Shown: positions 20,099 through 64,000, counted from the first letter of the stretch. The stretch is DNA of 64,000 nt from Alphaproteobacteria bacterium (GCA_017480745.1 JAFUSA010000031.1:13792-77791); one strand, 5' to 3'. Made by a program: numbers and translations. The notes: generated by a model from the sequence alone, not told the origin.

Positions 20099-20746
20099 TC
20101 AATAGAATTTCAAGAGCAATGCATTTTCGTCACCATCACAAACGGCTGCTGCATTAGCGGCGGTCATCGGACCTTTACCTCCACAAGCAATTCCGTTACC
20201 AGCAGAACATGCTGCAATTTTCTCTTGAAAAGTAGATAAGGTTGTATTTTCTACTTTATTTACCACGTTTGCTTCTATCAAGCCTGAACCGGAAGCCGAA
20301 CCCCAATCCTGAGTTGCCAAATCCATGCAAGCTTCTTCCGGAATGTTAGTAAACGCTACCACAAACGCTTTCGCATCACCACATTTCGTACAAAGAGCGT
20401 TATCCTTACTAGCACGAGCCGCCGCAACCAACTCAATAGCGCCACCAAACGGATTACCGTTCTCTATTATATCGGTGGAGCCATTCAGCAACTCATCCGG
20501 AAATAATTTTGCTTTGGCAATTAAAGAACCTGTTGTTGTTGCTCCTAAAGCTTTATAGTTCTTTTGGCTGCCGAACAGAGTGCGCACATTGGTTACAATC
20601 ATAGAAATTTGTTCAATGGTTTTATTTGTGCGGTATTTCATCATTGCTTTGGAATATCCGGCAATACCACCAACAGACAAAACACCGATGATGGCCAAAA
20701 CGCCTAACATCTCAATCATGGAACGACCGTTCTCATTATTTTTCAT
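20099..20746 (-). CDS. Type IV pilin-like protein (pilin 1, no structured leader; candidate major pilin)
   Basis: Short leader peptide, G/RSMIEMLGVLAIIGVLSVGG with Glu+5, Cys-containing C-terminal domain, GAGGAG SD. Confidence 0.88.
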   Translation of the reverse strand: MKNNENGRSMIEMLGVLAIIGVLSVGGIAGYSKAMMKYRTNKTIEQISMIVTNVRTLFGSQKNYKALGATTTGSLIAKAKLFPDELLNGSTDIIENGNPFGGAIELVAAARASKDNALCTKCGDAKAFVVAFTNIPEEACMDLATQDWGSASGSGLIEANVVNKVENTTLSTFQEKIAACSAGNGIACGGKGPMTAANAAAVCDGDENALLLKFY

Positions 20747-20784
20747 AACATTTCTCCTCTAAAAAAAATAACTTATTCTCTTGC

Positions 20785-20813
20785 AGAATATCACGCACAA
20801 ACCGCATTGTCAA
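20785..20813 (-). promoter_or_regulatory. Near-consensus sigma70 promoter of pilin 1
   Basis: TTGACA (20813-20808), 17-nt spacer ending TGA, TATTCT (20790-20785). Confidence 0.7.
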
Positions 20814-20923
20814 TACGCTATTTGTAATAGTTACAAAGTAATACACAATTTTCAACGCATACTATGCACTGTAATTTTGGAGATACTTTATTTGCGGCAA
20901 AAAGTAAAAACTACAAGATTTTG

Positions 20924-21295
20924 TTACTCTTTTATATATGGCTTGCTCAACTCATCAAAGCGTGCCGACGAATCTTTGCCCCACCCCATAATATATTCAT
21001 TGCCAAAACAAATCAGCGGCGTTCCGGCCATTGCGCCGATTCGATAAGTTTTAACCGCTTGGGTAAACAATTTTTGATTGCCGGGCATTTTAACGTTAAG
21101 CCCTTTAATTTGCAGATGCGGATATTTTTCTTTAATATATTCCGCCGCCTCATGACAATGCGGACAGCTTTCTTTGTAGAAAAAATATATCTGCTCCTTG
21201 CTTAAATTTTTGATGTTATCCGCCGAATCGCCACACGCCGAAATCAGCAAGGCCACACACGCGCAAATCGCCACATTCAATAAACGTTTCAACAT
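20924..21295 (-). CDS. Glutaredoxin-like lipoprotein
   Basis: Lipobox ISAC, CPHC redox motif, GTP cis-Pro loop. Confidence 0.8.
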   Translation of the reverse strand: MLKRLLNVAICACVALLISACGDSADNIKNLSKEQIYFFYKESCPHCHEAAEYIKEKYPHLQIKGLNVKMPGNQKLFTQAVKTYRIGAMAGTPLICFGNEYIMGWGKDSSARFDELSKPYIKE

Positions 21296-21301
21296 ATTAT
21301 A

Positions 21302-21901
21302 TTACTCTATACAGCAATCAACTGCCTTACGCACAAAACGTTTCATTTTAGCCAAAGCTCCAACCGGTTCTTCGGCAACAACAGTCGATTCGCTCACTTT
21401 GGTTTCAGCTTCGTTTTGCATAACTTCGGCGGCCTTAACCGTTATTTTTTTCACCTGCTCAATATCCGGCTCAATCCATTTCAGGTCTTTGGTTTCCATC
21501 ATTCCCATATTCAAGCCCCAAAAAAGGCAATACATATCATAAGCGGAATTAAACATTTTGTAGGCTTCTTCATCTTTGCCCAAAGATTGTTGCTTAGTGC
21601 CAACTTCCATCAAACGCATTGATGTTGCCAACAAGTGTTTAGACATGCACCAAACTTCACCCTCATAGCTTGGAATGATTTTTTGCAAAAGATTCTTGCG
21701 GGTTTCGCGCACTTCTTTTATTAAATCATAATAAGATGTTTTACCGGTTTTGGCGCCCGAAAACACTAAGTGCTCTTCAATAGATATAAGATTCATAATG
21801 GCGATGCTCAAATCCTGATCGGAAGATAAATCCTTAGGATTAACTTTTTTAGTGGCATCGATTCGCTCAACAAACGCTTTAACATTTTCCGCTTTTTTCA
21901 T
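21302..21901 (-). CDS. Hypothetical helical protein ending in DCCIE
   Basis: 199-aa ORF with AGGAG SD; probably co-transcribed with the glutaredoxin-like gene. Confidence 0.7.
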   Translation of the reverse strand: MKKAENVKAFVERIDATKKVNPKDLSSDQDLSIAIMNLISIEEHLVFSGAKTGKTSYYDLIKEVRETRKNLLQKIIPSYEGEVWCMSKHLLATSMRLMEVGTKQQSLGKDEEAYKMFNSAYDMYCLFWGLNMGMMETKDLKWIEPDIEQVKKITVKAAEVMQNEAETKVSESTVVAEEPVGALAKMKRFVRKAVDCCIE

Positions 21902-22084
21902 AATACAGCTCCTTGAAAAAAATCTTGGCTTAAAGATAATTGCTCAAAAAGGGCTTGTCAAGCAAAATATTCATTTAGCCGACATTATGTTTATTGCAAA
22001 AATTATTTAATCGCCCAAAAAAGTGAACGCCCGTTTTTTCCTTTTTAGGGGAAAAATACGGGACGTTCGTTAATTACTTGCTGA

Positions 22085-22981: not shown

Positions 22982-24460
22982 TTATTCTGCCAAACGAAAC
23001 AAATCAAATGGTAAACCATTAACGGTAATATAGGCGATAAGCAGGCAAAAAACGGCAAAAATTTGCAACATATTTAATATGTTTTGATTCTTTGCTAACG
23101 GAAAAATACGCGGCAATATTTTTAACAACCAGTTAAGAGCATAAATTCCCACGGTAATAAGTATAAGCTGAGCAAAAATTCCCGCCTGAATAATCTCCGT
23201 CTTATATGGAACCGCCAACTTGTATAAAAAGGCAAAAAATAACAAATACACTGCGCAAAATACATAAAATCCGTAATGTTTTAGATTATCAAGATAAGCC
23301 TGCTCTTGATTTTGGCGCACCATATTTTCCGCCGTTATTTTTTCCACTTTCATTCCGCGCACTGTTTGCGGCTCTTGCTGTTGTTTTTTATATTCCTCCA
23401 TCTGCGCTTTGAATTTTTCTTTAACCATACACAGACCGCATCCTTTCGGAGTAAAATAGGCATGGTTATGATCTTTTTTGCACTGTTTACGATTTTTTAC
23501 CAAATATTCTAAAAGTGATTGCCATTCCAGCGCACTCGGTCGCTCATTGCCTTTGGTAAATGCACGCTCAAACAAAACCATGGTGTTTTTATCAAAATAA
23601 TCATGAATACTATACGGGTGCGGAGCCTGATAAGTATCTTGCCACATGCCATAAGCGTAATGATAATCGGCGATGCGTTCTTGTATGGAAAGCATATTCA
23701 CGCTTTTGCGCGGAACACCTGAAAATGGGTGGATTCCCTCATTTAAAAGTTTGAATATAATAACAGCCAAAGCAAACTTATCCTGTTCCTCCCCCATTTC
23801 TTGACAAGTTTGTTCCATACCCTCGGGATATATATATTCTTCGCTCACATATTCTGCCGGATAACGCTCGTTATTTTCGCCTTTAATGGAAAAACCGTCG
23901 CAATCAAATAAAGCCACCAACATCGTACCTTTATAAACAGAAACGTTTGACGGCTTCAAATCAACAATATAGTGTCCGCAAGCGTGCAATGCCGCCACCA
24001 CCGAAGCAATATTATATGCCGCATAAATTCGATTCACATAACGTTCGCTTATTCCCAATTTTTGCCGCACGGCTTTTTGCATTAAATGATCCATGGATAT
24101 GGCATCATTAGTATCAATCAAAGGCATTAAATAACCAACGCAAAAGCCTTGTTTATCCTCCAATAAGGCAGTAGGCCACGCAATCTGAATATATTCTTTT
24201 TCAACAACTTTATCACCTGTTTTATCTTTGTGTTTAATAACCGGAATATTAGGCCGATTATGCAACATGGCTTCAAGTTTTTTGCGGTTTATCTCGCTGT
24301 TTTTACGGTCATGATAAATCTTAGCAACGCTCTTAGGATGGCTGTTATCTAAATATATACGACCGGAAGCTCCGCCTTTGTTAAGCAATTCTCCCAAAAC
24401 TATTTCTTCGTGGTGTCCGTCAGGGTATAACGCCAAATATTTATCTTGTATTTCTGCCAT
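22982..24460 (-). CDS. Ser/Thr protein kinase, YegI-like, with C-terminal TM helices
   Basis: GGASGRIY, VAKIY, DLKPSNV, DCDGF motifs; ATG overlaps the PP2C stop codon. Confidence 0.85.
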   Translation of the reverse strand: MAEIQDKYLALYPDGHHEEIVLGELLNKGGASGRIYLDNSHPKSVAKIYHDRKNSEINRKKLEAMLHNRPNIPVIKHKDKTGDKVVEKEYIQIAWPTALLEDKQGFCVGYLMPLIDTNDAISMDHLMQKAVRQKLGISERYVNRIYAAYNIASVVAALHACGHYIVDLKPSNVSVYKGTMLVALFDCDGFSIKGENNERYPAEYVSEEYIYPEGMEQTCQEMGEEQDKFALAVIIFKLLNEGIHPFSGVPRKSVNMLSIQERIADYHYAYGMWQDTYQAPHPYSIHDYFDKNTMVLFERAFTKGNERPSALEWQSLLEYLVKNRKQCKKDHNHAYFTPKGCGLCMVKEKFKAQMEEYKKQQQEPQTVRGMKVEKITAENMVRQNQEQAYLDNLKHYGFYVFCAVYLLFFAFLYKLAVPYKTEIIQAGIFAQLILITVGIYALNWLLKILPRIFPLAKNQNILNMLQIFAVFCLLIAYITVNGLPFDLFRLAE

Positions 24461-25206
24461 CACAATCTCGCCCACAATATAGTTTTATCATCTGAATTAA
24501 GACGTTGCGCTCGCTTGTCGTTAAGGGTGTTATTCAAAGCCTGTAAAGCATAGGTTTTACGTTGTTCAATTTCCAAATACTCCGCTACCGGAATAAAAAA
24601 TTTATACTGAATATCATAAAAATTATCGGCAAAAACAAAACCGGTTACACCATCTGTCATCAACATTACCCTATCGACATTTTCAAAAGGTGTAAAACGT
24701 AAACAATCTTGCCAATCACTCATCGTATAAAAATAAGTTTCACACGAAAAATTGCCGTTTTCCGGCTCAGAAATAACAAAATTTTTATAATCTCGCTGCT
24801 TAAAAGCAATACCGGCTCCATCTCCGATATGGAAGAATATTCCTTTGTTATTATGATAAAACACTCCGACTAATGTGGCGGAAAAATTAACCAATTCCGC
24901 CGCGCTTTTACTCCTATTATTTCGATGTAAAAGCAACTTGTTGCGAGCAATTTTAATTGATTTTATAACACTGTTGCGAATATCTTTTATGTCTGTGCGA
25001 ATAAGAGTATCACAAAGTGTCTCACAAATAACTTTTGCGCCGATTTTGCCGTATGGTGCAGACCCTGCACCATCTGACACAACGGCAACCAACTTGTTTT
25101 TGGCAATTTTGGAACAGCTAAAATCTTGACATGGCAAATTTTTTATGCGGTGCATTGCACCACAAATACTGGTAGCCAAAACTTTAATTTGTTCCTTGCC
25201 TGCCAT
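24460..25206 (-). CDS. PP2C-family phosphatase, YegK-like
   Basis: PCQD, VSDGAGS, HIGDG, MTDGV and DDKT motifs. Confidence 0.9.
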   Translation of the reverse strand: MAGKEQIKVLATSICGAMHRIKNLPCQDFSCSKIAKNKLVAVVSDGAGSAPYGKIGAKVICETLCDTLIRTDIKDIRNSVIKSIKIARNKLLLHRNNRSKSAAELVNFSATLVGVFYHNNKGIFFHIGDGAGIAFKQRDYKNFVISEPENGNFSCETYFYTMSDWQDCLRFTPFENVDRVMLMTDGVTGFVFADNFYDIQYKFFIPVAEYLEIEQRKTYALQALNNTLNDKRAQRLNSDDKTILWARL

Positions 25207-25209
25207 CTG

Positions 25210-25890
25210 TTAATTCTCGTTCCACTCAGTTATGTCATCAAGATAATTGTTTGCATTTGGTGCGGCTTTTGATATGCAGGAAACACTGCGACTAAGCCAT
25301 AGAAAAAATTCGGTAAATTTTAAGCCGGTCAAACGTTTGGGTGGCAATAGAGAAAATTTTGCTAACTTATCAAGGTTGGCGCCTTGTGTGCCAATAGCAT
25401 GAATCACAACTTTTTTATTTTTCTGCGCATAACGGCATATTTCCGCCGCATCTTCCCAACCATAATCGGTTGGTTCTCCGTCGCTGATTAAAAAAATCCA
25501 CGGTCTTTTAGAGGTTATACCACAACTATCATACAAACATTTTTGCTCTTCTATTTTTTGCAAAGCAGTTTCCATAGCTTTTCCAAGCGGAGTAAGACCG
25601 CCGGCTTCCATTGTCGGCGCCGTAAAATTCATAGCATCAACCCAATCGGTTTCAACACTCACCTCATCTTCGCCTGAAGCTTTAATAATCAGAAGCTGCA
25701 CCCGCGAACTGGCGTCTATATCTTCCTTCAATTCTTTCTCCAACGCTTTAAGTCCGCTGTTGAGTTGTTTTATCGGCTCATCGCGCATAGATCCGGAACA
25801 ATCTAAAACTAAAACGCAAGGAGTGCGCTCGTTGGCGTTTTCGGCAAATTCTACATAAGGTATGCGTTCCATATTATTTTTATCAGCCAT
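25210..25890 (-). CDS. vWA-domain protein, TerY/YegL-like
   Basis: MIDAS DCSGSM, GGLTPLG, RPWIFLISDGEPTD, FFLWLSRS. Confidence 0.9.
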   Translation of the reverse strand: MADKNNMERIPYVEFAENANERTPCVLVLDCSGSMRDEPIKQLNSGLKALEKELKEDIDASSRVQLLIIKASGEDEVSVETDWVDAMNFTAPTMEAGGLTPLGKAMETALQKIEEQKCLYDSCGITSKRPWIFLISDGEPTDYGWEDAAEICRYAQKNKKVVIHAIGTQGANLDKLAKFSLLPPKRLTGLKFTEFFLWLSRSVSCISKAAPNANNYLDDITEWNEN

Positions 25891-26130: not shown

Positions 26131-26688
26131 ATGAAAAATTTTTTCAACATTGTTTTGATTTTTGTTTTGTTTATATTGCAGCTAAGTTCTGCTGCGGCAA
26201 AAATAAATATGTTTCCGCAACCACGCTATATCCCGCCGCTTAATTTTTACGGTGATAGCGGAAAAGCTTATAAATTAACGGATTTTAAAAGCGATTTACT
26301 GATGGCTGTAATTTGGTCAAAAAATTGCGGGCCGTGTTTGGAAGATATGAAATATTTGAACTCTTTTGCAAAAAAAACTGCCAAACAAGGAATTAAAGTT
26401 ATCTTAATTTCACCAGAAAAAGAATGGCAAACGATTGATCAACGACGTAGTTTTTTACGCAAAATCGGTGCGCCTAATTTAGTAAGTTACTTAGATAGAA
26501 AAGGGGCTTTTCGCGACGGTATGGGTATTATGGTAACTCCGACAGTGATTTTGGTTAATAAAGCCGGTGAAGAGGCCGGACAAATAACCGGCGCCGTCAG
26601 ATGGGATGATGAGGAAGTTATTGAATATATGGTAAAACTAAAAGAAGATATGTTACAAGAACTTTATCAGCGCAAATCCGCCAATTAA
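26131..26688 (+). CDS. TlpA-family thiol:disulfide oxidoreductase
   Basis: Signal peptide, WSKNCGPC, TPTVILV, GAVRWD. Confidence 0.85.
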   Translation: MKNFFNIVLIFVLFILQLSSAAAKINMFPQPRYIPPLNFYGDSGKAYKLTDFKSDLLMAVIWSKNCGPCLEDMKYLNSFAKKTAKQGIKVILISPEKEWQTIDQRRSFLRKIGAPNLVSYLDRKGAFRDGMGIMVTPTVILVNKAGEEAGQITGAVRWDDEEVIEYMVKLKEDMLQELYQRKSAN

Positions 26689-27374: not shown

Positions 27375-28034
27375 CTATTTTACCAAAATATAAAACAGAA
27401 TTTCATTTCCGGCTCCGGGAGTTCCTTTCGAATTTGCCGCATTCGCACAATATGTTACGGCTTCTTCCATATCTGCCGGAATAGAACTGAACACATGTCC
27501 TGCTGGTCCCTGAATTTCCATTTTCATGGCATTTGATACCGACCAGTCCTTAGTTGCCAATTCTATACATATCTCCGCATCAAAAGGAAGACCATAGCCT
27601 ATATAAAATGATTTATTATCATCTGTTGCACCTAAAACAACAGAGTTTCCAAAAACGTTTGCCACTTTAATAGCTATATTGGCGTGTTGCTGTTGTGTAT
27701 CTACGATCATTTCATCGGGTAATATTTTGGCTTTTCTAATTATCGAACAGCCATCACCAGAACAATATCCAGTTCCACAATAACAAGAAACGCCATCATA
27801 GCTCCTTTGCGGAGCAAAAAATGTTCTCACATTGCCGGCAATTAAGGTTATTTGCTCTATGGTTTTATTGATTCTATACTTTTGCATAGCTTTTGAATAT
27901 CCGGCGATGCCACCGACAGAGAGCACGCCGATTATGGCCAGAACGCCTAACATCTCAATCATAGAGCGTCCGGACTGGCTCCCTTGCTCCTTGCGTGAGA
28001 GAGTATCATTATTTTTTATTTTTAAGTTTCTCAT
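27375..28034 (-). CDS. Type IV pilin-like protein (pilin 2)
   Basis: G/RSMIEMLGVLAIIGVLSVGGIAGYSKAM, KAKILPDEM, ICIELATKDW. Confidence 0.88.
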   Translation of the reverse strand: MRNLKIKNNDTLSRKEQGSQSGRSMIEMLGVLAIIGVLSVGGIAGYSKAMQKYRINKTIEQITLIAGNVRTFFAPQRSYDGVSCYCGTGYCSGDGCSIIRKAKILPDEMIVDTQQQHANIAIKVANVFGNSVVLGATDDNKSFYIGYGLPFDAEICIELATKDWSVSNAMKMEIQGPAGHVFSSIPADMEEAVTYCANAANSKGTPGAGNEILFYILVK

Positions 28035-28068
28035 AGTAAACTTCCTTTCATTGTTGTTGAATTATACT

Positions 28069-28241
28069 AAAATAACCGCCCGATAAGGCGGCTGGAAGCT
28101 CTAAACTATCATCTATCCAATAGCGTTGCGTATTTGCCACAGGTTTATTCCACAACCTTCCAGCCATGCTGGAAATATTTTACGTCACAAAGGACGGATA
28201 GATAAGAGGTTTAGAGACCTCAGACGAATTTTACCTCATCT
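28069..28241 (-). ncRNA. Pilin leader RNA, divergent copy D (candidate riboswitch/attenuator)
   Basis: Same helix order as the three + strand copies; pseudoknots CUCUAA/UUAGAG and UAUCUAUCC/GGAUAGAUG; antiterminator GGCUGGAAG/CUUCCAGCC overlaps terminator AGCCGCC/GGCGGUU-AUUUU. Confidence 0.75.
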
Positions 28242-28247
28242 TGTTTT

Positions 28248-28275
28248 ATCATATCATAAAAAATGCAAAAGTCAA
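28248..28275 (-). promoter_or_regulatory. Promoter of pilin leader D
   Basis: TTGACT (28275-28270), 16-nt spacer ending TGA, TATGAT (28253-28248). Confidence 0.7.
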
Positions 28276-28353: not shown

Positions 28354-29109
28354 TTATTTCACACTATTGATTTCCGCTTGAAAATCTTCTGCATTATAAG
28401 ATTGAACCGGCTTACCGTTAACAAACACAGACGGCACGCCTCTGATATGAATTTTTTGTGAAAGCACGGCAATTTCACCCAAATCATCGGCAATTTCCGT
28501 AGAATCCACATCGGCTTTGTATTTTTCCATATCCAAACCCAAATCTTCGGCAACTTTATCTACGGCTTTTTTATCCATAACTTCTTTGCTGTCCATAACT
28601 TTTTTATAAAAATCAATAAACTTATTCTGTTTATGCGCAGCAAAACCAGCCTTTGCCTGATATGGTGAAAGCGGTGTTAAAAAAGTAAGCGGTTTGAACA
28701 CAAACTTAACATCCGGATTATCAGCCATAATCTTTTCCATGGTAGGAGCCAACTTTTTGCAATATATGCAAGAAAAGTCAAAGAATTCCACTACCGTAAC
28801 CTTGGCATCTGCCGGACCAAATGTCGGTGCATTTTCCGTGCCATTAATTTCATCGGCATATTTGGCAACGGCTTCCTGTTGTTCTCTTTCTGCTTCTTCT
28901 TGCAATTGGAGTTGATAAGCCTCTAACGCATCAACAATCATTTTCGGATTTTTTTTAAGCATAGTGGCCAATTCTTCTTCCGACACTTGTCCACCCGACA
29001 ACTGAACAATCGAATTTCCCTTTACACCGCTGATTTTGCAACCGTTAAGCAAAGAAAACGATGCCAAAATAACAGCGATAACGGAAAGAATTATTGAAAA
29101 ATTTTTCAT
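28354..29109 (-). CDS. DsbA/Com1-family disulfide oxidoreductase
   Basis: VVEFFDFSCIYCK and IRGVPSVFVNG motifs. Confidence 0.88.
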   Translation of the reverse strand: MKNFSIILSVIAVILASFSLLNGCKISGVKGNSIVQLSGGQVSEEELATMLKKNPKMIVDALEAYQLQLQEEAEREQQEAVAKYADEINGTENAPTFGPADAKVTVVEFFDFSCIYCKKLAPTMEKIMADNPDVKFVFKPLTFLTPLSPYQAKAGFAAHKQNKFIDFYKKVMDSKEVMDKKAVDKVAEDLGLDMEKYKADVDSTEIADDLGEIAVLSQKIHIRGVPSVFVNGKPVQSYNAEDFQAEINSVK

Positions 29110-43749: not shown

Positions 43750-43777
43750 TTGACTTTTTAATTTTTTGTGATAGTAT
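43750..43777 (+). promoter_or_regulatory. Promoter of pilin leader A
   Basis: TTGACT (43750-43755), 16-nt spacer ending TGA, TAGTAT (43772-43777). Confidence 0.7.
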
Positions 43778-43784
43778 TCCAGAT

Positions 43785-43979
43785 AGAACTTCGGTTCGAG
43801 GGCTTTGAACAGCTCTTAGGTTTTCGGTGCTTTTGCATCGTTATAAGAATGTAATATATCTCCGATTGGGTCGGGGAGTCTCTAACGGATGTTCAGGAAC
43901 TTTGTTCTAAAGGTTAGGGGAATCACTAAAACCTATGATTGTTCAACTCTCCCGACCGCTGTTTAGTGGTCAATTTTTT
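43785..43979 (+). ncRNA. Pilin leader RNA, copy A (candidate riboswitch/attenuator)
   Basis: Homologous to 59407-59605 and 63450-63647 with compensatory changes in the helices; ends in terminator GACCGCU/AGUGGUC-AAUUUUUU. Confidence 0.85.
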
Positions 43980-44013
43980 ATTGTGTTAATACTTAATTTT
44001 AGGAGATAGAATT

Positions 44014-44640
44014 ATGAAAAACTTAAATGTAAAAAATCAAAACGGGCGCTCAATGATTGAGATGCTGGGTGTTCTTGCTATCATCGGTGTTTTATCGGTT
44101 GGCGGAATCGCGGGATACAGCAAGGCGATGATGAAATATAGAATCAATAAAACCATTGAGCAGATAACGTTAATTGCCGGTAATGTGAGAACATTTTTTG
44201 CTATGCAAAGGGATTATGAAGGACTTGATTCAAGCACAGATGATGGTAGGAAAATAATTCAAAAAGCCAAACTTGTGCCCGATGAAATGTGGAATGAAGC
44301 CGGAAACGGTTTGGTAAATGCGTTTGGAGATATGTTTTATGTAAATGCAACAGGAAAGTCGGCAGAGGATTCTTATGGTAATAGAGCGTTTCAAATTCAA
44401 CTGCATGAAATACCAGAAGAAGCCTGCATTGAGTTATTATCGCATGATTGGCAAGCCAGCGGTATGGTAGCTATATATACAGATACCAGTTCCAAAGGAG
44501 AAGTAATTGCTAAGGTTCCGCTCAGTGTTGAGGCGGCAACCAACTTCTGTGCCGATAATAGTGGCGATGATAAAGACACTCTTTTTATGTTTGATATAGA
44601 CTGGAACAGGTGGTCTGACGGACTTTACATTTATGAATAA
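44014..44640 (+). CDS. Type IV pilin-like protein (pilin 3)
   Basis: G/RSMIEMLGVLAIIGVLSVGG, KAKLVPDEM, IPEEACIELLSHDW; AGGAG SD. Confidence 0.88.
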   Translation: MKNLNVKNQNGRSMIEMLGVLAIIGVLSVGGIAGYSKAMMKYRINKTIEQITLIAGNVRTFFAMQRDYEGLDSSTDDGRKIIQKAKLVPDEMWNEAGNGLVNAFGDMFYVNATGKSAEDSYGNRAFQIQLHEIPEEACIELLSHDWQASGMVAIYTDTSSKGEVIAKVPLSVEAATNFCADNSGDDKDTLFMFDIDWNRWSDGLYIYE

Positions 44641-49679: not shown

Positions 49680-49687
<8 letters not shown>

Positions 49688-50541: not shown

Positions 50542-50586
50542 ACAATTTATTTTATAATATTTGTATGTTTTCGGGGAAATGGCAAG

Positions 50587-51579: not shown

Positions 51580-51588
51580 GAGTTTATA

Positions 51589-52254: not shown

Positions 52255-52256
52255 CC

Positions 52257-52718: not shown

Positions 52719-54096
52719 TTGCCCCGCTTGCTTTGTAATAAGCAATTAAATTTTGCCAAACGGCGGCAGTAGCATTGACACTGTCGCGTTGAGCTTTAAT
52801 AAGATTCTGTTGCATGGTAAGCAAATCAGAAAATTCTATTAATCCGTTTTCAAATTTGCTGCGACTTAGATAAGTGGCTTTTTCTATATTTGCGGTGGCG
52901 ACAAATTGTTTTTTTTGACTTTTAAGAGAATTTTCATAAGCTGTCATGGAATTTTTAAGTTCACTTACGGCATTCAAAAGAACTTGTTTGTATTGCGCCA
53001 AATTCTCTTCTTTTATGTATTTTTGTAACAGCACATTGTTTTGCAGGCGATTCCAGTCCAATATAGGCATATTTATTAATGGTGCATAATTATATGTTTG
53101 ACTTTCAGAATTGAATAAACCACTTCCGTTTTTCGCGGCATAACCCCAAAATCCGCTTATGTTAACATCAGGATAAAGATTAGCTATCGCTTTTGCCACT
53201 TGTGCGTTTTGGGCAATTAAATTTTGTTCGGCAATTTGCACATCTGGACGCTGACGAATTACATTTGCCGGTAAGTCATATATTTTGCTTGAATTGTGAA
53301 TATAATTGCCTTTAAACAGAGAGGTTGAAGATATTTGAACAGCAGAAGGCAAAATACCTACCAAAGTTGCCAAACTGTTACGATATGCCTCAATATTGCT
53401 TTCATATTGCGGAATTTGTGCTTGTGTATCGGCCAATAAATATTCTGCTTGTCTGTAACTTATTTCATCAATCAAACCATTATCGTATTTGTATTTTACG
53501 GTAGAAAAAATTTCTTTTTGTAAAAATAAATTTTTTTGCAATAATTCTAAATTTCTTATATTTTGTTGTAATTTAACATAATTTAAGGCAATATCTGCCG
53601 CTAACAAATTATGAGCATTAATCAGACTTAAATTTGCCGCATTTACTTTTGCCTCATCGGTTTCGTATTGCCTTAAGCTTTTTCCCCATATATCAATTTC
53701 CCACGAGGCATCAAAACCGGCAGTGTAGTAGTTTGAATTAACTGAGGCGGATATTTTTTTACTGCTTTTGTTATAATTATATCCACCTTGCGCATTAATC
53801 TGCGGTAAAAAACTTGTTATGTTAATCAATAAATTTTGTCGAGCTTGTTTCAAACGAGAAAGAGCCACCATAACAGAAGTACTTGAACACAATCCTTGTT
53901 GAATAAGTTGATTAAGTTGCTCATCTTTTAGCTGCAAATACCAATTATTCGGCAAGTGATTCGTTGGTTTAAGATGTAATTCTGCGGCAATTTTATTATC
54001 ATCGTAAAAATTAGGCTGTTTATATTTCTCACCAACATTACAAGCAAAACAAAACATACTTAAAGCGATTATATAAAAATTTTTAAGCATTTTCAT
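52657..54096 (-). CDS. TolC/NodT-family outer-membrane efflux lipoprotein
   Basis: Lipobox, [22 protein letters not shown]; third gene of the RND operon. Confidence 0.9.
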
Positions 54097-57000: not shown

Positions 57001-57217
57001 CACCGTTTATTTCATTTTCCACCGGAACAGCCACTGTATCAACCAAAACTTTGGCATTTGCTCCGTAATAAGTGGTAGAAACCACAATTTGCGGAGGAGT
57101 AATTTCCGGATATTGTGCCACCGGTAACACACTTAATGCCAAAAGACCGATTAAAATCATTACAATCGCTACCACAATGGCAAAACGAGGTCTATCAATA
57201 AAGAAAGCTGAAAACAT
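54083..57217 (-). CDS. RND efflux permease (AcrB/HAE1 family)
   Basis: [42 protein letters not shown]. Confidence 0.95.
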
Positions 57218-57220
57218 CGT

Positions 57221-58342
57221 CTATTTCTCCGTTTGCATCAACTTATATTCTGCTTTTTTTCCAAGCATACGTTCATCAACATCTTCCACCACAATCATTT
57301 CGTTGGGAGCAAAAGAATTTTTCACCAAAAAATAATTGTTTTGTTCGGCCAAGATATCAACTTTATGCAAAGTTAAAACACCCTCTTTAACAGAATACAC
57401 ATAATCTCCGTCAGCATGTATTATCAGCCAGTTCTTTTGCAACTTTACAACATTTTCGTATTCTCGTTCCAACAACACATTAACAAAAGCGTCGGGAATT
57501 AAAAGATGCTCCGGATTGGCAAATATGGCATAAACCGCAATGGAATTTGTTGTTGGGTTTATTTGATTAGCGGAATATTGAATTTTTCCGGTTTGCGGAA
57601 GAATACTACCGTTAGCTAATTGTGCTTTTACGGTAAGAGGAGCTTTGTTTTTATGTTGCATATTGTTCAAAAATTCTTTATCACTGAGAGAAAAAACAAC
57701 TCTTATCGGGTCATATTGCACCAGATACGCCAAATTACGGCTTTGTGGAGAAATGTAATTTCCGATTGAAGAAGCTATATTACCCAAAACACCATCAAAC
57801 GGAGCTTTAATCAAAGTATATTCCAAATTTGTACGTGCCGAAAATTTTTGGGCTTCTGCCTTTGCCATATTGCCTTTGGCAGATAAATACTGTGCTTTGG
57901 CATTATCTAATTCTGTTAGGGAAACGGCTTTTTCACCGGCACTCTGCATACGCTCGTATTTTATTTTGGCGTTTAAATAATCTGCTTTGGCAGAAAAAAG
58001 ATTTGCCTCTGCGGCGGCCAAATCAGCAATGTATTCATCTTGCTGAATTTTTAGCAAAACATCTCCGCGTTGCACTTTTTGTCCGCCGGTAGCAATAATA
58101 TCAACCACATAACCGCTGATATAAGGCACTATTTCCGTGGCATTTATAGCGTCAACACGCCCGATATATGAGTGCACAACCGTTTGTTTTTGAGCCTGAG
58201 GTGCAATTACAGATATTTTTTCATCATAAACAGGCTTGTTAGTGTTTTTTCCACGATGTAAAGTTATAGCATACCAAACAACGGTTACAACAATAATAAA
58301 AAGTGCAAACGAAAACAGTTGTTTTTTGATATTCTTTTGCAT
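57221..58342 (-). CDS. RND periplasmic adaptor (membrane fusion protein)
   Basis: N-terminal TM anchor, GQKVQRGDVL and IKAPFDG motifs. Confidence 0.92.
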   Translation of the reverse strand: MQKNIKKQLFSFALFIIVVTVVWYAITLHRGKNTNKPVYDEKISVIAPQAQKQTVVHSYIGRVDAINATEIVPYISGYVVDIIATGGQKVQRGDVLLKIQQDEYIADLAAAEANLFSAKADYLNAKIKYERMQSAGEKAVSLTELDNAKAQYLSAKGNMAKAEAQKFSARTNLEYTLIKAPFDGVLGNIASSIGNYISPQSRNLAYLVQYDPIRVVFSLSDKEFLNNMQHKNKAPLTVKAQLANGSILPQTGKIQYSANQINPTTNSIAVYAIFANPEHLLIPDAFVNVLLEREYENVVKLQKNWLIIHADGDYVYSVKEGVLTLHKVDILAEQNNYFLVKNSFAPNEMIVVEDVDERMLGKKAEYKLMQTEK

Positions 58343-58405
58343 AATTTATCCTCCTGAGTATTTTCTCATTTTAGATAATCAGCAAAATGTTCTTTTCAAT
58401 AAAAG

Positions 58406-59278
58406 TTATTGCATTAATTCAACTGCGCGAGTTAATTTGCGAATGGAATTCAGTTCTATTTGTCGCACACGTTCTTTTGATATGTTATAAATGCGACTTA
58501 AATCATCAAGAGTTATGTTTTCTTCACTCATACGGCGTTTGAAAAGAATATCTTTTTCGCGTTGATTCAAGACATTTACGGCTTTATAAAATAATTTGCG
58601 GCGATAGTTTACAGTTTCGCGGTATGAAAGTTGCTCCTCCTGATTTGGATGATTATCATAAATAAAATCCATCCATTCGGCTCCGCTATCACCCTCACTG
58701 TTATCAATAACAATGTTCAAAGAACCATCATGTGCTTTAAGTCTTGTATTCATATCGGTTACTTCTTGTTCACTGACATCTAAAAACTGAGCAATATCTT
58801 TAATAACATCGTCAGAAAGTTCTCGATCATCCATTAAATTAAGGTTATTTTTTATTTTCCGCAAATTAAAAAATAATTTTTTCTGCGCAGCAGTTGTACC
58901 AACTTTAACCAGTGACCACGAATTCAAGATATATTTCTGCACGGCAGCTTTAATCCACCACAACGCATAAGTGGAAAATCTAAATCCTTTATCTGGTTCA
59001 AATTTTTTAATAGCATAAAGTAAACCAATATTTCCTTCGGCAATCATTTCATTGAGTGGCAAGCCGTATCCTTTATATTTGGAAACAACCTTAACCACAA
59101 GGCGTAAATGCGAAGTTATAAGTTGATATGCAATATCTTTATCGGCAGTTTCTTTGTATTTTACCGCTAATTCATATTCTTCTTCCTGAGATAACAGCGG
59201 AAAACGCCTGATATTTTGTAAGTAACGCGCCATATTAATATCGGGCGAAAAGTCAAGTCCAGTAAGAGCAGTTTCCAT
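58406..59278 (-). CDS. rpoH: RNA polymerase sigma-32 factor (start moved to ATG 59278)
   Basis: RpoH box KVGTTAAQKKLFFNLRK, GFRFSTYALWWI, SKERVRQIE; AGGAG SD before METAL. Confidence 0.93.
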   Translation of the reverse strand: METALTGLDFSPDINMARYLQNIRRFPLLSQEEEYELAVKYKETADKDIAYQLITSHLRLVVKVVSKYKGYGLPLNEMIAEGNIGLLYAIKKFEPDKGFRFSTYALWWIKAAVQKYILNSWSLVKVGTTAAQKKLFFNLRKIKNNLNLMDDRELSDDVIKDIAQFLDVSEQEVTDMNTRLKAHDGSLNIVIDNSEGDSGAEWMDFIYDNHPNQEEQLSYRETVNYRRKLFYKAVNVLNQREKDILFKRRMSEENITLDDLSRIYNISKERVRQIELNSIRKLTRAVELMQ

Positions 59279-59372
59279 TATTGTTCTCCTTTTAATTGAC
59301 CACACGATAATAGTAATATATTTTTTATTATACAACCTATACTTTTGTTTTAGACTTTTCTGCAAAAAATAT

Positions 59373-59400
59373 TTGACTTTTACTTTTTTTATGGTATAGT
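59373..59400 (+). promoter_or_regulatory. Promoter of pilin leader B
   Basis: TTGACT (59373-59378), 16-nt spacer ending TGG, TATAGT (59395-59400). Confidence 0.72.
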
Positions 59401-59406
59401 GAAGTC

Positions 59407-59605
59407 AGAACTTCGGTTCGGAGCTCTCAAAAGCTCTTATTAAGGTTGGCATCAAAAGATGTCATTAGTAAATGTGATAATATCTCCGATTTGGGTTGGG
59501 GAGTCTGTAACGGATGTTCAGAGCATTTGCTTAAAGGTTATGGAAATCATTTGCCTTAATATGATTTTTGAGCTCTCCCGACCGCCATTTAGCGGTCAAT
59601 TTTTT
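59407..59605 (+). ncRNA. Pilin leader RNA, copy B (candidate riboswitch/attenuator)
   Basis: Starts AGAAC-UUCG-GUUC; pseudoknots CUCAAA/UUUGAG and UAUUAAGGU/GCCUUAAUA; terminator GACCGC/GCGGUC-AAUUUUUU. Confidence 0.85.
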
Positions 59606-59639
59606 AATGTGTTAACCTCTGAATTTAGGAGATAAAATT

Positions 59640-60281
59640 ATGAAAAAATGTAATTTAAAAAATAATGATTATCTCTCCCCTTGCGGGAGAGAGAGCCAGT
59701 CCGGACGTTCAATGATTGAGATGTTGGGCGTTTTAGCTATCATTGGCGTGCTTTCTGTTGGCGGAATCGCAGGATACAGCAAAGCAATGATGAAGTATCG
59801 TATTAACAAAACCATTGAGCAGATAACCCTCATTGCCGGTAACATAAGAACATTTTTTGCTCCACAAGGAAATTATGCCGGTCTGGATAATGAAAAAGTA
59901 ATCCGAAAGGCCAAACTTATACCTGAAGAAATGATAGAGTATTATGTTGAAGGACCAGGTATTTCAATTGACTATGAAGGCACAATAAAATCCATAATAA
60001 ATCCGTTTGATGGCGCATTTATTATTCATACAGAAGAAGATTATAGAGCGTTTGGTTTTTCGTTAACAAACATACCGGAAGAAGCCTGTATAGAACTTCT
60101 AAGCAATGATTGGACTGAATTGAATGTAACGCATTTTTGCCACTCAGGTCCTCCTGTATGTATTACGCCGAAAGCAGATTTTGATAAAATACTGACCTTG
60201 TGTGAAAAAGCAAAAGATAGCTATTTGTTTCTTTTCTTTGAATTAAAAAATGAATTACCCGGCGATGGAAGCTGGTTATGA
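59640..60281 (+). CDS. Type IV pilin-like protein (pilin 4)
   Basis: G/RSMIEMLGVLAIIGVLSVGG, KAKLIPEEM, IPEEACIELLSNDW. Confidence 0.88.
   Translation: MKKCNLKNNDYLSPCGRESQSGRSMIEMLGVLAIIGVLSVGGIAGYSKAMMKYRINKTIEQITLIAGNIRTFFAPQGNYAGLDNEKVIRKAKLIPEEMIEYYVEGPGISIDYEGTIKSIINPFDGAFIIHTEEDYRAFGFSLTNIPEEACIELLSNDWTELNVTHFCHSGPPVCITPKADFDKILTLCEKAKDSYLFLFFELKNELPGDGSWL
59672..59692. repeat. REP-like GC-rich palindrome inside the prepilin leader peptide
   Basis: TCTCTCCC-CTTGC-GGGAGAGA; a degenerate copy in the opposite gene-relative orientation lies at 27981-28003. Confidence 0.65.
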
Positions 60282-60289
60282 ATCAACAA

Positions 60290-60315
60290 AAGAGCCGCCT
60301 GAACAAGGCGGCTTT
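60290..60315. terminator. Terminator between pilin 4 and rplQ
   Basis: AGCCGCCT-GAACA-AGGCGGCT. Confidence 0.75.
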
Positions 60316-60338
60316 GAACGAAAAAACAAACGTTATTA

Positions 60339-60791
60339 TTATTCTGCTGATGCAGTCTCGGCTTTTTCTGCTTCGGCTGCTGCTGCTTTTTCAGCGGCAA
60401 CGCGAGCCAAATCTTTCGCACCTTTGGCCTTAACATCGCGATCAACCAATTCAATAATCGCCATCGGAGCACAGTCGCCATAACGGAAACCGGCTTTCAA
60501 AACGCGGGTATAACCGCCGTTGCGATCTTTATAACGTTCTGCCAATGTAGAGAAAAGCTTAGAAACAACTTCATTATTACGCAAAAAACCTGCGGCTAAA
60601 CGACGGCTGTTTAAATCGCCTCTCTTGGCATATGTAATCATATTATCGGCAAAAGTTCTCAACTCTTTGGCGCGAGTTAATGTGATTGTAATTTGTTCAT
60701 GTGTCAGCAAAGCGCCGGTCAAATTAGAAAACAAAGCTCTTCTTTGGCTTTTCGGCATACTGAACTTTCTATGTTTATCACCATGTCTCAT
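60339..60791 (-). CDS. rplQ: 50S ribosomal protein L17
   Basis: MRHG start, [43 protein letters not shown]. Confidence 0.97.
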
Positions 60792-61002
60792 GATGTCATT
60801 CCTTTCTTTTCTGTGCTTTGCCTGGCAAAGCGGGTAAACACAAAGCTTTTACTACGGTGACGCAATGCGCTCATACATAAAAGCAATCAGATTCGTTGGT
60901 TGTTTAACATACTATTTTATTAAAAGCAAGATAAAAAAATACAAAATGTATAAAAAAATTTCGCCGGCACCCCAAAGCGTCGGCGAAATAAAACAAAATT
61001 TT

Positions 61003-61518
61003 TTAATTTTGCATATTTTCCTGAGCTACATCGGCTCCGGCATTTATGGCAATTTTTTTAAATTTTTGTTTTTCTGCCGGTAATTTAGGAATAGACACAT
61101 TCAACACACCGTTTTTATAAGCAGCGGTAACATGATCGTAATCCAAATCCCATGGCAAAGGCACTGTGCGTTTGAAAGTGCCGTAAGAAATTTCCGAAAA
61201 ATAAGCATCTTTATCTTTGGATTCGACAATATTTTTCTTTTCTCCGCAAACCGATAAATAGCCATCGGGAGAAATCTGTAAATCCAAATCTTTTTCTTCA
61301 ATTCCCGGAAGTTCGGCCGTAATATTAACTGCCGACTTTGTTTCCACAATTTGTAAATGTGGTTCAATTTCAGTTATGGACGAACCTTCACTGACAGAAC
61401 CTGTTGTATCAAAGTAGTTCCAAAAATAATTCATCAGATGATTAAATTCACTATTCCGGCCAAACGGCATCATCTCGCCGGATCCGGAACGGGTGTTGCT
61501 GGAAATCATACTCTTCAT
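61003..61518 (-). CDS. Small heat-shock protein (Hsp20/alpha-crystallin)
   Basis: TAELPGI, EISYGTFKRTVPLP, AAYKNGVLNVSIPK. Confidence 0.92.
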   Translation of the reverse strand: MKSMISSNTRSGSGEMMPFGRNSEFNHLMNYFWNYFDTTGSVSEGSSITEIEPHLQIVETKSAVNITAELPGIEEKDLDLQISPDGYLSVCGEKKNIVESKDKDAYFSEISYGTFKRTVPLPWDLDYDHVTAAYKNGVLNVSIPKLPAEKQKFKKIAINAGADVAQENMQN

Positions 61519-61658: not shown

Positions 61659-61774
61659 ATTTTTTCTCCTTCTGTTTATTTTCAAAAGCAAAACACAATG
61701 TTTCTACCGCTGATAAAAATAAATATGAAAAAGCAAAATCAAAGGTACCCAATGGTCTATTATAGCCTAAAAAT

Positions 61775-63331
61775 TTATTTTTCTGCCTTGCTTTCGTGAT
61801 ACGTTTTTTCGGTATTAACCTGCCAAATTGCCTTTTTATCGTCAGTTTCACCCAAAATATGCTTAACAGCCATAAAAGAAGTTGCCATAGAGTGATCCAT
61901 ATTGTTATAGCGATGCTGACCGTTTCGCCCGACACAATATAAATTATCAAAATCATTCAAAAAATCTATCAGTTTATCAATATCTTTATATGTATCAAAA
62001 TAAGCAGGATACGCCTTTATAACGCGCTCAACATGCGAATCTTTAACTTCATCAGCAGAAGAAATAACCCCCATTTTGAGCAGCTCGGCAACTCCGAATT
62101 CTTGCCATTTTTCATCATTCATGTTCCACATCTTATCGCCTTCTCGGCAAAAATATTCCAAACCGATCCACACACTTTCTTCCGGTTTGGCTACCATATA
62201 CGGCGACCAGTTGTTGAATATTTGAATACGTCCCAACTTAACTCCCACGTCTTGCACATAAATCCAGCAATCAGGCACAATATTATTAAGTGTTTGCAAT
62301 TTGGTTTTATTTTTCAAATTAAGCCTGCTTAACAATAAACCGACGGTAACAAAATCGCGATACGGTAAACCTTGTGCAATTTCACGTATATTTTCCGGCG
62401 TATCCGGCATTCCCGCAATTAAGTCTTTCAATGGCATGGAAGATATCACAATATCAGCTTCAACTTTTCGTTCCTTACCGTTTTCGCTATAAACAACCTT
62501 GTTTATATGTTTGTCCTTGCAAACAAAAGATGTTACTTTGGCATTTTTAATAATTTTGCCACCCATTTGTTCAATTTGTTCAGCAGCGGTGTTCCACAGC
62601 TGCCCCGGACCGTATTTGGGATAACTAAACTCTTCAATCAACGAAGTTTCTACTGTTTTCGGTTTAAACGGCATAAGTTTACCCAAAATATCTTTCAAAA
62701 TTGCCACAATAGAGAGCCCTTTAACCCTCTGTGCGCCCCAATCGGCAGAGATATCCCGCGGATGCCTCCCCCAAAGTTTTTCAGTATATCCCTCAAAAAA
62801 CATTGAATAGAGCTTGCGTCCGAAGCGATTAATATAAAAGTTTTCAAGTGAACTTTCCGGCAATTTCCGCACTACCGACCATAAGTAACTTAAACCGGCT
62901 TCAATCGTTGTAAACAATCCCATGTTAAGAATGGTGTTAAGATTCATCTTGACCGGATAATCAAAAAACTTGCGTTTATAATAAATACGCGAAACCCTGC
63001 GCCGTTTTAACATAACCACATCTTCTGTTTCCGGATTCGGCCCGTTTGGATTAAGTTCAACATCGCGCTTAATAATTATGTCATCATACGAAGGTTTGCC
63101 CTGCAAAGGCATTAAGTTATTCCACCAACGGTTTACTTCGTCATCTTTGGAAAAAAAACGGTGTCCGCCGATATCCATTCGATTCCCTTTATATTCCACC
63201 GTACGGGAAATACCACCCAAAATGTTATTTTCCTCCAAAACAATTACATCATATTTCTTAGATTTTTTCAGTAATTCATATGCCGCTGTCAAACCGGCCG
63301 GACCGGCGCCTATAACTACAACTTTTTGCAT
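61775..63331 (-). CDS. FAD-dependent oxidoreductase (protoporphyrinogen oxidase/UDP-galactopyranose mutase-like)
   Basis: [37 protein letters not shown]. Confidence 0.87.
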
Positions 63332-63415
63332 TGTTCCTCTCCGTTTTTTGACGTTTTAACCACATTATAACATAAATGAGCAAAATGCAACAGAAAAATA
63401 TTTTACATTTTAGGT

Positions 63416-63443
63416 TTGACTTTTGAATTTTTTGTGATATAGT
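63416..63443 (+). promoter_or_regulatory. Promoter of pilin leader C
   Basis: TTGACT (63416-63421), 16-nt spacer ending TGA, TATAGT (63438-63443). Confidence 0.72.
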
Positions 63444-63449
63444 CGATGG

Positions 63450-63647
63450 AGAACTTCGGTTCGGGGCCTTAGAAAGCTCTTACTACATTCGGTGTTCGAC
63501 ACCGTAACTATATATGATTAAATATCTCCGACTTGGGTTGGGGAGTCGTTAGTGGATGTTCAGGGGCTTTGCCCTAAAGATTAGCGAGATCATTTAATGT
63601 AGTATGATTTTCTAACTCCCCTGCCGCCGTTTGGCGGTCAATTTTTT
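63450..63647 (+). ncRNA. Pilin leader RNA, copy C (candidate riboswitch/attenuator)
   Basis: Starts AGAAC-UUCG-GUUC; pseudoknots UUAGAA/UUCUAA and UACUACAUU/AAUGUAGUA; terminator GCCGCC/GGCGGU-CAAUUUUUU. Confidence 0.85.
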
Positions 63648-63682
63648 AGTGTAAAATAACCTATTAACAGAGGAGATAAATT

Positions 63683-64000
63683 ATGAAAAATTTAAATAAT
63701 ATAAATAATGAATCCGGTCGCAGTATGATTGAAATGTTGGGCGTGTTGGCAATTATCGGTGTTTTGAGCGTTGGCGGAATCGCCGGATATTCCAAAGCCA
63801 TGCAAAAATATCGCATTAATAAAGCCATAGAACAAATAACTCTTATTGCCGGAAATATACGTGCGTTTTTCGGACCGCAGAAGAATTATGTCGGGGTGAG
63901 ATGTGTTTGCGATAACGGTGGTTATACTGGTGAAACTACTAACGATGGCTGTCCGATAATTAAAAAAGCCAAGATATTACCGGATGAAATGATTACTCTC
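63683..64000 (+). CDS. Type IV pilin-like protein (pilin 5, truncated by the window end)
   Basis: Manual translation MKNLNNINNESG/RSMIEMLGVLAIIGVLSVGGIAGYSKAMQKYRINK...KAKILPDEM; GAGGAG SD. Confidence 0.88.
   Translation, partial: MKNLNNINNESGRSMIEMLGVLAIIGVLSVGGIAGYSKAMQKYRINKAIEQITLIAGNIRAFFGPQKNYVGVRCVCDNGGYTGETTNDGCPIIKKAKILPDEMITL

Follow-up and report, generated by a model that had tools for sequence, protein, structure and literature searches.

Five type IVb pilin genes in the window

The window, a stretch of 64,000 nucleotides (nt) at G000:C21:13792-77791 in the metagenome assembly of an uncultured ruminant-gut alphaproteobacterium, carries five pilin genes belonging to a family of 176 loci scattered through the same genome. 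The original prediction had placed five open reading frames (ORFs) here, and their coordinates and strands were borne out. Two lie on the minus strand, at 20099..20746 (215 amino acids, aa) and 27375..28034 (219 aa), and three on the plus strand, at 44014..44640 (208 aa), 59640..60281 (213 aa, convergent with rplQ) and 63683..64000. The last is the 5' part of a gene for 223 aa that continues past the window to G000:C21:78145. Copies are referred to below by their first coordinate. No further pilin copies were found in the window, and the other two on contig C21 lie upstream of the window start.

Each ORF starts with a short basic leader peptide, followed by Gly and then RSMIEMLGVLAIIGVL..., which gives the Gly at -1, Glu at +5 and hydrophobic helix of a class-III signal. 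This signal was found in all five window copies and at 176 loci genome-wide. The claim of a near-identical N-terminus held: over residues 1-58, counted from the Gly of GRSM, the five copies share 81-95% identity, with an invariant run of 29 consecutive residues. In the head that follows, the motif KAK[LI]xP[DE]E is present in 5/5 copies and C[IM][ED]LxxxDW in all four complete ones. The segments between these motifs had been said barely to align, which fits identities of 12-44% but not the 44014 and 63683 copies, whose C-terminal segments are 81% identical whilst their middle segments are 24-28% identical.

Domain profiles and predicted structure agree on the nature of these proteins. PF08805 (PilS_N) scored above its cut-off of 22 bits in all four complete copies, with 40.5 bits for 20099, 26.3 for 27375, 46.3 for 44014 and 28.5 for 59640. 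PF05307 (Bundlin) was at or above its cut-off in three (39.4 bits for 20099 and 45.2 for 44014), with the 27375 copy just missing the cut-off of 22.3 at 21.6 bits; no NCBIfam model matched the window pilins. Against solved structures, a profile of 117 family members matched BfpA (1zwt, E 2.5e-7) and Salmonella Typhi PilS (1q5f, E 2e-3). The AlphaFold model of the 44014 copy, with a predicted local distance difference test (pLDDT) of 85.7 and a predicted template-modelling score (pTM) of 0.77, has a long N-terminal helix and an alpha/beta head. In a Foldseek search with this model, ranks 1-15 were all type IVb pilins (best E 1.3e-5, TM 0.59), and the 13 best distinct Protein Data Bank (PDB) entries were all type IVb, among them 9iuf from enterotoxigenic Escherichia coli (ETEC), TcpA 8uhf, CofA and PilS (also 3s0t, 3fhu). 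Type IVa pilins ranked far below the type IVb ones. We conclude that the five ORFs are type IVb major-pilin genes of the bundlin/PilS class.

A different use of the pilin N-terminus was considered, in which it acts as an export and anchor signal that places small binding domains on the surface, in the manner of pseudopilin-like or bindosome-type and DUF1559-like proteins, and the products are not filament subunits. The number of paralogues, far beyond that of any known pilus system, speaks for this, as do the heads, which are cysteine-rich with mostly even Cys counts. PMC2754498 gives 74 DUF1559 genes for Rhodopirellula baltica. However, the window copies contain no SBP_bac_10/DUF1559 domain; Pfam gives only PilS, Bundlin and a weak N_methyl match, and no solute-binding domain. 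The whole protein is modelled with the fold and size of a type IVb major pilin, and a polymerisation helix of 58 residues is conserved beyond what a signal peptide needs. We consider it quite improbable that these proteins are anything but filament subunits.

The assembly genes were found on other contigs, in keeping with their predicted absence from the window. A pilus cluster on contig C28 encodes a 754-aa assembly ATPase, a T2SSF platform protein, PAP_PilO, a secretin and a TcpQ-like protein; the secretin most resembles the PilN family of type IVB pili, although its 272.5 bits fall below the cut-off of 287.65. Judged by its genes, this single machinery is R64/Tcp-like type IVb. There is one prepilin peptidase, a Peptidase_A24 on contig C1, and G000 also has two short PilT-like ATPases. 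Two of the 176 pilin copies flank the C28 cluster, and the five window copies are on a different contig. Since every copy has the same signal and N-terminal helix, all are predicted to be cleavable by the single peptidase and polymerisable by the single C28 machinery.

Directly after the platform-protein gene on C28 lies a 206-aa ORF, P0121 (L041:6241-6861, minus strand), with a hydrophobic N-terminal helix, two Cys and an ACINL motif resembling the family's EACIEL, but with neither Gly-1/Glu+5 nor a Pfam match. P0121 is possibly a minor pilin-like protein or a degenerate one. A contig end (G000:C30:120718-122769, L034) carries VirB10-like and VirB11-like genes, which shows that G000 has a type IV secretion system as well.

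A large family with constant N-termini and variable heads

Counting the motif genes upheld the predicted large genome-wide repertoire. G000 comprises 1,598,228 bp in 34 contigs (37.8% G+C) and is 98.9% complete and 0.3% contaminated. A six-frame motif scan found the 176 pilin loci, of which 171 match the 11-residue motif exactly; they are spread over 29 of the 34 contigs and over both strands (86 on plus, 90 on minus). Together they take up 121,203 bp, or 7.6% of the genome. Complete copies of at least 150 aa number 169, with a median of ~228 aa including the leader peptide; five of the incomplete loci run off contig ends, and two are short ORFs of 61 and 84 aa. One copy with an internal stop was seen among the rows listed in a protein search, and the broken or stunted copies seen amount to three in total. 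That independent search put the matches at 170; it had 190 candidates and scored 150 of them. The count of 176 is a lower bound, given the five loci at contig ends and the possible collapse of copies. Genome-wide, leader peptides all begin M(K/R)N(L/F)xIKN and fall into length classes of ~9-13, 20-25 and 39-63 aa. The longer ones resemble in-frame insertions. The insert in the 59640 copy (59640-59712) holds an 8-bp hairpin at 59672-59692 with a fold no better than shuffles (z -1.68), and no corresponding hairpin was found in the 27375 copy leader peptide (27963-28034).

The constancy of the N-terminus lies in the protein. Invariant residues in the 169 complete copies use every synonymous option (Ser TCN and AGY, Arg CGN and AGA, Leu TTR and CTN). 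Over 3,000 random pairs, the proportion of differing synonymous sites (pS) was 0.67 and that of nonsynonymous sites (pN) 0.07 in codons 1-29; the values were 0.72 and 0.17 in codons 30-58, and 0.67 and 0.46 in the head. Mean identity in the first 174 nt was 74% (sample of 3,000 pairs), and none of all the pairs of 169 copies reached 95% nucleotide identity there, the maximum being 92%. The codon table and this maximum rule out recent duplication or homogenisation as the source of the constant N-terminus. An invariant protein with saturated silent sites and at most 92% DNA identity indicates that each copy has long been translated and selected. By the evidence of the codons, the same processing and polymerisation interface has been maintained in every copy by purifying selection, and such selection on the N-terminal codons of every copy rules out silent DNA cassettes.

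The heads have another history. They were split into modules at the two scaffold motifs, both of which are present in relaxed form in 140 of the 169 copies (strict forms: KAK in 143/169, C..DW in 112/169, both together in 100/169). The best partners of head module 2 and of module 3 were the same copy in just 19 of the 140, and many pairs had at least 75% identity in one head module and less than 30% in the other. In the closest pairs, head pS was 0.11-0.30 against an N-terminal pS of 0.39-0.67, with head dN/dS (nonsynonymous to synonymous rate ratio) of ~0.4-1.5. At fourfold sites of the 12 closest pairs, the N-terminal 58 codons were significantly more diverged than the head in nine (Fisher p <0.02), as in a pair with 16/21 sites differing in the N-terminus versus 6/47 in the head (p 6e-7). 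Two more pairs went in the same direction without reaching significance. The 12th pair, the leaderless 20099 copy and its closest paralogue, was uniformly diverged (8/27 versus 21/61 fourfold sites).

Windows of 100 nt at 97% identity or above were shared by 129 pairs (30 copies), and all 129 lay in the head; pairs sharing 97-100% identical 100-nt head tracts had N-terminal DNA at most 92% identical. Along such pairs, identity is highest (95-100%) in the 3' half of the head and declines within ~40-180 nt past the stop codon, and their leaders and leader peptides differ, large indels included. In ~34 copies, a 105-130-nt stretch around the KAK motif is common at 89-98% nucleotide identity, exceeding that of their "constant" region. 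Exchange also reaches beyond G000, where alleles of the 44014 copy show 81-88% identity. One of them, P0001, is 88% identical overall with a first module nearest another paralogue (96%), and a further protein, P0009, has a first head module 100% identical to that of the 44014 copy, with its other modules at 50% and <30%. The gene-conversion test that had been proposed was positive, as judged by discordant module partners, silent-site divergence, head-only identical tracts and identity profiles. As read from these comparisons, the heads are mosaics of at least three modules re-assorted among paralogues and alleles by recombination. Heads and 5' units have recombined repeatedly whichever half counts as the mover; the mosaicism and the discordant silent-site divergence, seen in one assembly, show recombination in either direction, reciprocal or not. 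The gene family offers a natural experiment in which its constant and variable parts have opposite histories, saturated silent sites under an invariant protein beside near-identical "variable" tracts.

A GC-rich palindrome, GCCGGCG-N6-16-CGCCGGC, occurs 23 times in G000, 21 of them within 150 nt of a pilin 3' end; that of the 63683 copy lies at about L002:2210-2245, just beyond the window. Thirty copies have 40-90 nt of 3' flank in common. The palindrome could be a T-less terminator, a repetitive extragenic palindromic (REP)-like element or a 3' recombination anchor. Integron-like cassettes, a candidate prompted by these palindromes, were rejected: the units are dispersed and form no arrays, and no attC-like core was seen, without a dedicated test.

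Strains were compared using contigs of the DNA runs X5, which is bovine, and X6, from sheep, both produced in other studies. A ~14.5-kb contig from each run covers the housekeeping genes at 44925-59393, with 118 differences in X5 and 112 in X6 (~0.8%). The head of the 44014 copy carried 35 differences and 31 gap letters over 672 nt in X5, concentrated at 44329-44434, and 17 differences and 9 gap letters over 296 nt in X6. At ~8-10%, its divergence is about ten-fold above that of the flanks, which are ~99.2% identical. At 59640, X5 and the window share an allele, with 7 of 457 nt differing. The X6 locus is spanned by a single 3,957-nt contig, with the rplQ side 0.9% diverged, 430 nt of the head replaced by 612 other letters and the N-terminal coding part 19% different. 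A replaced head together with so different an N-terminal part indicates a different family member at the same locus. Taken at these two loci, the heads turn over quickly between near-identical strains. No strand change was seen at the 15 joints listed of the 46 found. Metagenome contigs searched with the neighbouring ABC (ATP-binding cassette) transporter gave 64 loci, the best 71% identical and too distant for allele-level DNA comparison. At 44701, in the spacer that separates the ABC transporter gene from the 44014 pilin gene, both X5 and X6 lack 20 nt.

Among species, counts were made with a 59-residue N-terminal query and are first-look candidates, not curated gene counts. All 50 species of the genus had matches, ranging from 4 to 182 candidates. 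Eight members had at least 50 (182 in G000, then 154, 137, 109, 91, 77, 65 and 52), 18 genomes had 11-46 and 24 had 4-10, some of these last assembled into 10-20 contigs. Across the order, matches were found in 195/201 genomes and 22/22 genera, with 1-6 candidates in most genera; in a second genus, 10 of the 11 genomes searched had 33-99 candidates and the remaining one had 3. A further genome, G059, has at least 150 copies in which the 29-residue start is identical and the next 30 residues are different. In a quick maximum-likelihood tree of 40 of the 169 G000 copies and 38 G059 copies, the latter taken from the 30 best-matching loci of that genome, species labels needed 3 changes against 26.4 when shuffled (0/500 as low), and 30 of the 38 G059 copies fell in one clade. 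This separation indicates that the expansions are lineage-specific. The pilin family is thus present at low copy number throughout the bacterial family, and several lineages have expanded it independently. In a low-copy relative, three tandem family pilin genes lie beside a tRNA gene (L167, G022:C257:3017-6640), whereas the G000 copies are single and dispersed.

Locus occupancy tells against fixed syntenic orthologues of low divergence. Of 29 other species, 5 have a pilin gene no more than 1.5 kb from rplQ. In two of these it occupies the side that it has in the window and is 46-47% identical to the window copy; the counts of 4 to 182 and the head turnover between strains agree with this. The 20099 copy belongs to a 4-member "core-type" subfamily in G000 and aligns over its full length, at 51-56% identity, with pilins of other species, low-copy ones included. 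None of the 11 best-matching loci in other species shared its neighbouring genes. This type looks like the older, ordinary one from which the leader-bearing swarm grew.

The window copies had been described as stand-alone units amid unrelated housekeeping genes, and the ten neighbours checked were all unrelated to pilins. Pfam identified DnaX, a VTT/DedA-type protein, a DsbA-like protein, a DegT aminotransferase, an ABC exporter, an RpoH-like sigma factor, L17, Hsp20 and a flavin adenine dinucleotide (FAD) oxidoreductase, and gave no match for one of the ten. The predicted lack of a recombinase also stood, as none of the genome's eight tyrosine-recombinase (PF00589) matches is on contig C21. 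In the stretch 58406-61518, rplQ sits between the pilin gene and hsp20, with the RpoH-like sigma gene beyond the pilin; neither RpoH nor Hsp20 was found within 1.5 kb of rplQ at any of 29 loci of other species. Gene order here is rearranged, with a pilin unit at the junction. The DsbA-like thioredoxin-fold gene (28354-29109, minus strand) adjoins the 27375 pilin, and a second thioredoxin-like ORF was recognised by eye at 26131-26688 (plus strand). Such enzymes would be needed by disulfide-rich pilin heads, though their position next to the pilin may be chance. At 22982-25890 (minus strand), three ORFs (497, 248 and 226 aa) lie side by side and look, on inspection by eye, like a protein kinase with a membrane part at its C-terminus, a phosphatase of the PP2C type and a protein with a vWA domain. 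At gathering thresholds, Rfam matched only tRNA and the signal recognition particle (SRP) RNA in the window.

Promoters, leaders and the choice of copies

A family promoter, TTGACn-N13-TGnTAnnnT, precedes 144 of the 176 copies, with a 16-nt spacer in 140 of the 144. The strict pattern has 161 matches in the genome, 141 of them ahead of pilins and one of the other 20 ahead of rpsL; the window holds five against 0.13 expected, and four precede pilin copies. On the minus strand, exact pattern match and leader alignment place the promoter of the 27375 copy at 28248-28275, followed by a ~210-nt leader of a second type (28035..28275). On the plus strand, the 44014 copy has its promoter at 43750-43777 and a leader (43750..44013) with a terminator-like hairpin ~70 nt before the Gly codon. 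The 59640 copy (59373..59639) has a promoter at 59373-59400, a leader from ~59407, a terminator-like hairpin and T-run at 59580-59606 and a Shine-Dalgarno sequence, and the 63683 copy (63416..63682) has a promoter at 63416-63443, a leader and a terminator-like hairpin and T-run at 63623-63646. A leader had been claimed for each window copy, which is true of four; the 20099 copy lacks family promoter and leader and shows only a weaker match resembling a promoter, 56 nt ahead of its Gly codon.

In 141 aligned units, conservation begins at an A-rich (UP-like) tract ~20 nt before the -35 box, and nothing is conserved farther upstream, which indicates that the units have no terminal repeats. The upstream regions of 169 of the 176 copies fall in one similarity cluster, with leaders of at least two types, and a Shine-Dalgarno sequence with an in-frame start was found in 166/176. 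Most copies are, on these signals, separate transcription units, each with a UP-like A-tract, a near-consensus -35 and extended -10 and a ~200-nt structured leader, which in many cases closes with a terminator-like hairpin shortly ahead of the ribosome-binding site.

Such dispersal could in principle reflect neutral or selfish amplification, the promoter-leader-pilin unit spreading as a repeat without benefit to the cell. The scatter over both strands would suit this, as would the wide swings in copy number among species. However, the units have no terminal repeats or target duplications, their conservation starting ~20 nt before the -35 box, and no transposase-like partner was seen beside them, although no scan aimed at transposases was made. 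Moreover, 169 of the 176 copies are intact at 150 aa or more, protein-level constraint is extreme despite saturated silent sites, and useless DNA amounting to 7.6% would hardly persist in a 1.6-Mb genome. We give this explanation very little credence.

The same features bear on a Neisseria-type system, in which one expressed pilin gene is fed segments by silent donors. Segmental exchange between copies is evident, as that arrangement would have it. By contrast, the copies here are full-length and, as the original prediction had contrasted them with Neisseria pilS, carry their own promoters, ribosome-binding sites and in-frame starts in the numbers given above. Their N-terminal codons are selected in every copy, which silent donors would not need. 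Promoters, ribosome-binding sites with starts and N-terminal selection together refute such a system as stated, and we see next to no chance for it.

The leaders are candidates for the control of individual copies. The fold of the 59640 leader beats all 200 shuffles (z -3.97), and its hairpin and T-run end 34 nt ahead of the start codon. Such an element was found by a strict hairpin-plus-T5 rule in 83 of 173 copies, including three of the five in the window; the strict scan found none in the 27375 leader. Rfam had no match to the 59640 leader (59380-59660) at E up to 1. Contigs from two RNA runs, X18 and X20, cover rplQ, hsp20, scattered genes and one leader. In X18, a 169-nt contig lies wholly inside the 59640 leader (59426-59594, one mismatch), which is compatible with a terminated leader RNA and is no more than a hint. 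None of the X18/X20 contigs listed was on the heads of the three pilin genes compared, and uncovered does not mean silent. That the leader keeps copies quiet, as had been proposed, is plausible.

Other switching devices were rejected. Slipped-strand phase variation in the promoter T-tract does not fit a spacer constant at 16 nt in 140/144 copies. Promoter inversion would need bracketing inverted repeats; none brackets the whole promoter in the four window copies, and the repeats present overlap the -35 box or form leader stems. A diversity-generating retroelement was dismissed, as G000 has no RVT_1 match.

We favour, as the probable explanation, that the five ORFs are members of a 176-gene family of complete, singly scattered type IVb major pilins that serves as a recombining library from which leader-gated subsets are made. 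Transcription would start at every copy, and read-through into the pilin gene would be decided in the leader. The cell would then make only a subset of its pilins under given conditions. A standing, recombining library of this kind would alter the exposed pilus surface, and the altered surface might escape pilus-targeting phages or host antibodies, or change what the pilus binds. Both gating by the leader and the benefit of a changeable surface are what we infer.

Several points weigh against this explanation. The strict hairpin-plus-T5 rule is satisfied by only those 83 of 173 copies, and one window copy (20099) has no leader at all. No device for picking copies was found, there being no bracketing inverted repeats, a constant spacer and no reverse transcriptase, and leaders that are all alike could equally turn on every copy together. 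The RNA contigs cover one leader and other genes and cannot rank copies by expression. The strain evidence consists of two runs and two loci. The selective agent, whether phage, antibody or binding target, is putative. Finally, G000 was assembled from a metagenome into 34 contigs, and its near-identical copies may have been merged or joined into chimeras; mis-joins within the conserved region are conceivable, yet the maximum identity of any pair there (first 174 nt) is 92%.

The main rival is an all-on regulon. Through a common promoter and leader, the whole family would answer one signal, and pili would be mixed polymers of many subunits, whose diversity would bring breadth of binding or a surface too varied to target, in place of sequential variation. 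The promoters are nearly identical with a fixed spacer, 169 of the 176 upstream regions belong to one linked leader family and no copy-choosing element was found. Purifying selection on every copy also argues that every copy is used. On the other side, the leaders differ in sequence, are of at least two types and could respond differently, and an identical polymerisation interface does not show co-assembly. We judge this rival unlikely, though it deserves to be taken seriously.

Comparison with known pilins and surface-variation systems

Few bacterial surface machines have been studied as thoroughly as type IV pili. The nearest relatives of the family are the type IVb major pilins BfpA of enteropathogenic E. 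coli (EPEC), PilS of Salmonella Typhi and plasmid R64, TcpA of Vibrio cholerae and CofA of ETEC. Like them, it has Gly-1/Glu+5 and a mature size of ~200 aa. The likeness extends to the PilS_N and Bundlin domains and the predicted fold, and, in the machinery, to a PilN-type secretin, PAP_PilO and a TcpQ-like protein. Known type IVb systems, however, have one major pilin gene in or beside the assembly operon, whereas here there are 176, nearly all far from it. They also differ in residue +1, which is Arg here, in the own promoter and long structured leader of each copy and in the length classes of the leader peptide. Known type IV pilus systems have one major subunit gene, or one expressed gene and silent cassettes. 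To our knowledge, 176 working major-pilin genes form the largest pilin repertoire known; literature searches found nothing comparable, and full-text searches found no paper describing this pilin family.

The family is nevertheless abundant in public data. Of 8,000 scored candidate clusters of public metagenome proteins (90% identity), at least 7,972 match at E <=1e-5, and of 1.84 billion representatives at 50% identity, 5,200, 1,615 and 160 match at E <=1e-3, 1e-10 and 1e-30, respectively. Its few named matches are labelled "hypothetical protein" only. Naming the family would improve the annotation of many gut alphaproteobacterial genomes.

With Neisseria pilE/pilS, the family has in common a constant N-terminus, variable head segments between conserved stretches and head-segment exchange. 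Neisseria pilins, however, are type IVa and those here type IVb, and Neisseria has one expression locus with promoterless, 5'-truncated silent pilS copies. The R64/IncI1 shufflon, with its PilV tip adhesin and Rci recombinase, belongs to the same type of pilus machinery and illustrates how alternative pilin C-termini could alter binding. It inverts DNA segments within one minor-pilin gene, whereas the variable parts here are separate major-pilin genes, with no conserved inverted repeats found and no recombinase in the window or contig C21.

Tens of pilin-like genes per genome are also known from the DUF1559 families of Planctomycetes and from Elusimicrobium minutum. DUF1559 proteins carry a prepilin-type N-terminus, and both these families have other C-terminal domains and pseudopilin or type IVa-like N-termini. 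We know of no DUF1559-type or Elusimicrobium pilin-like family that reaches 7.6% of a genome.

In its general plan, the family resembles a library for surface variation, one of unusual size. Extensive, dispersed gene families with a constant anchor, hypervariable exposed parts and segmental recombination are also found in the trypanosome variant surface glycoproteins (VSG), Plasmodium var and Mycoplasma vlp/vsp. The protein here differs in being a polymer subunit, so that the chosen copy changes the whole fibre. The family also points to pili as a main battleground for these uncultured gut bacteria, be it over phages, host immunity or partner choice. Tentatively, and with more doubt than confidence, one may see here a counterpart of the VSG/var strategy on a polymer subunit, with more than 170 genes under constitutive strong promoters, a riboregulatory leader that would let one or a few pass, and heads that are re-dealt. 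If so, pili could be re-coated at will against pilus-specific phages or gut antibodies, or to switch the cells or glycans they grip, and the library would be a central part of this organism's way of life in its 1.6-Mb genome.

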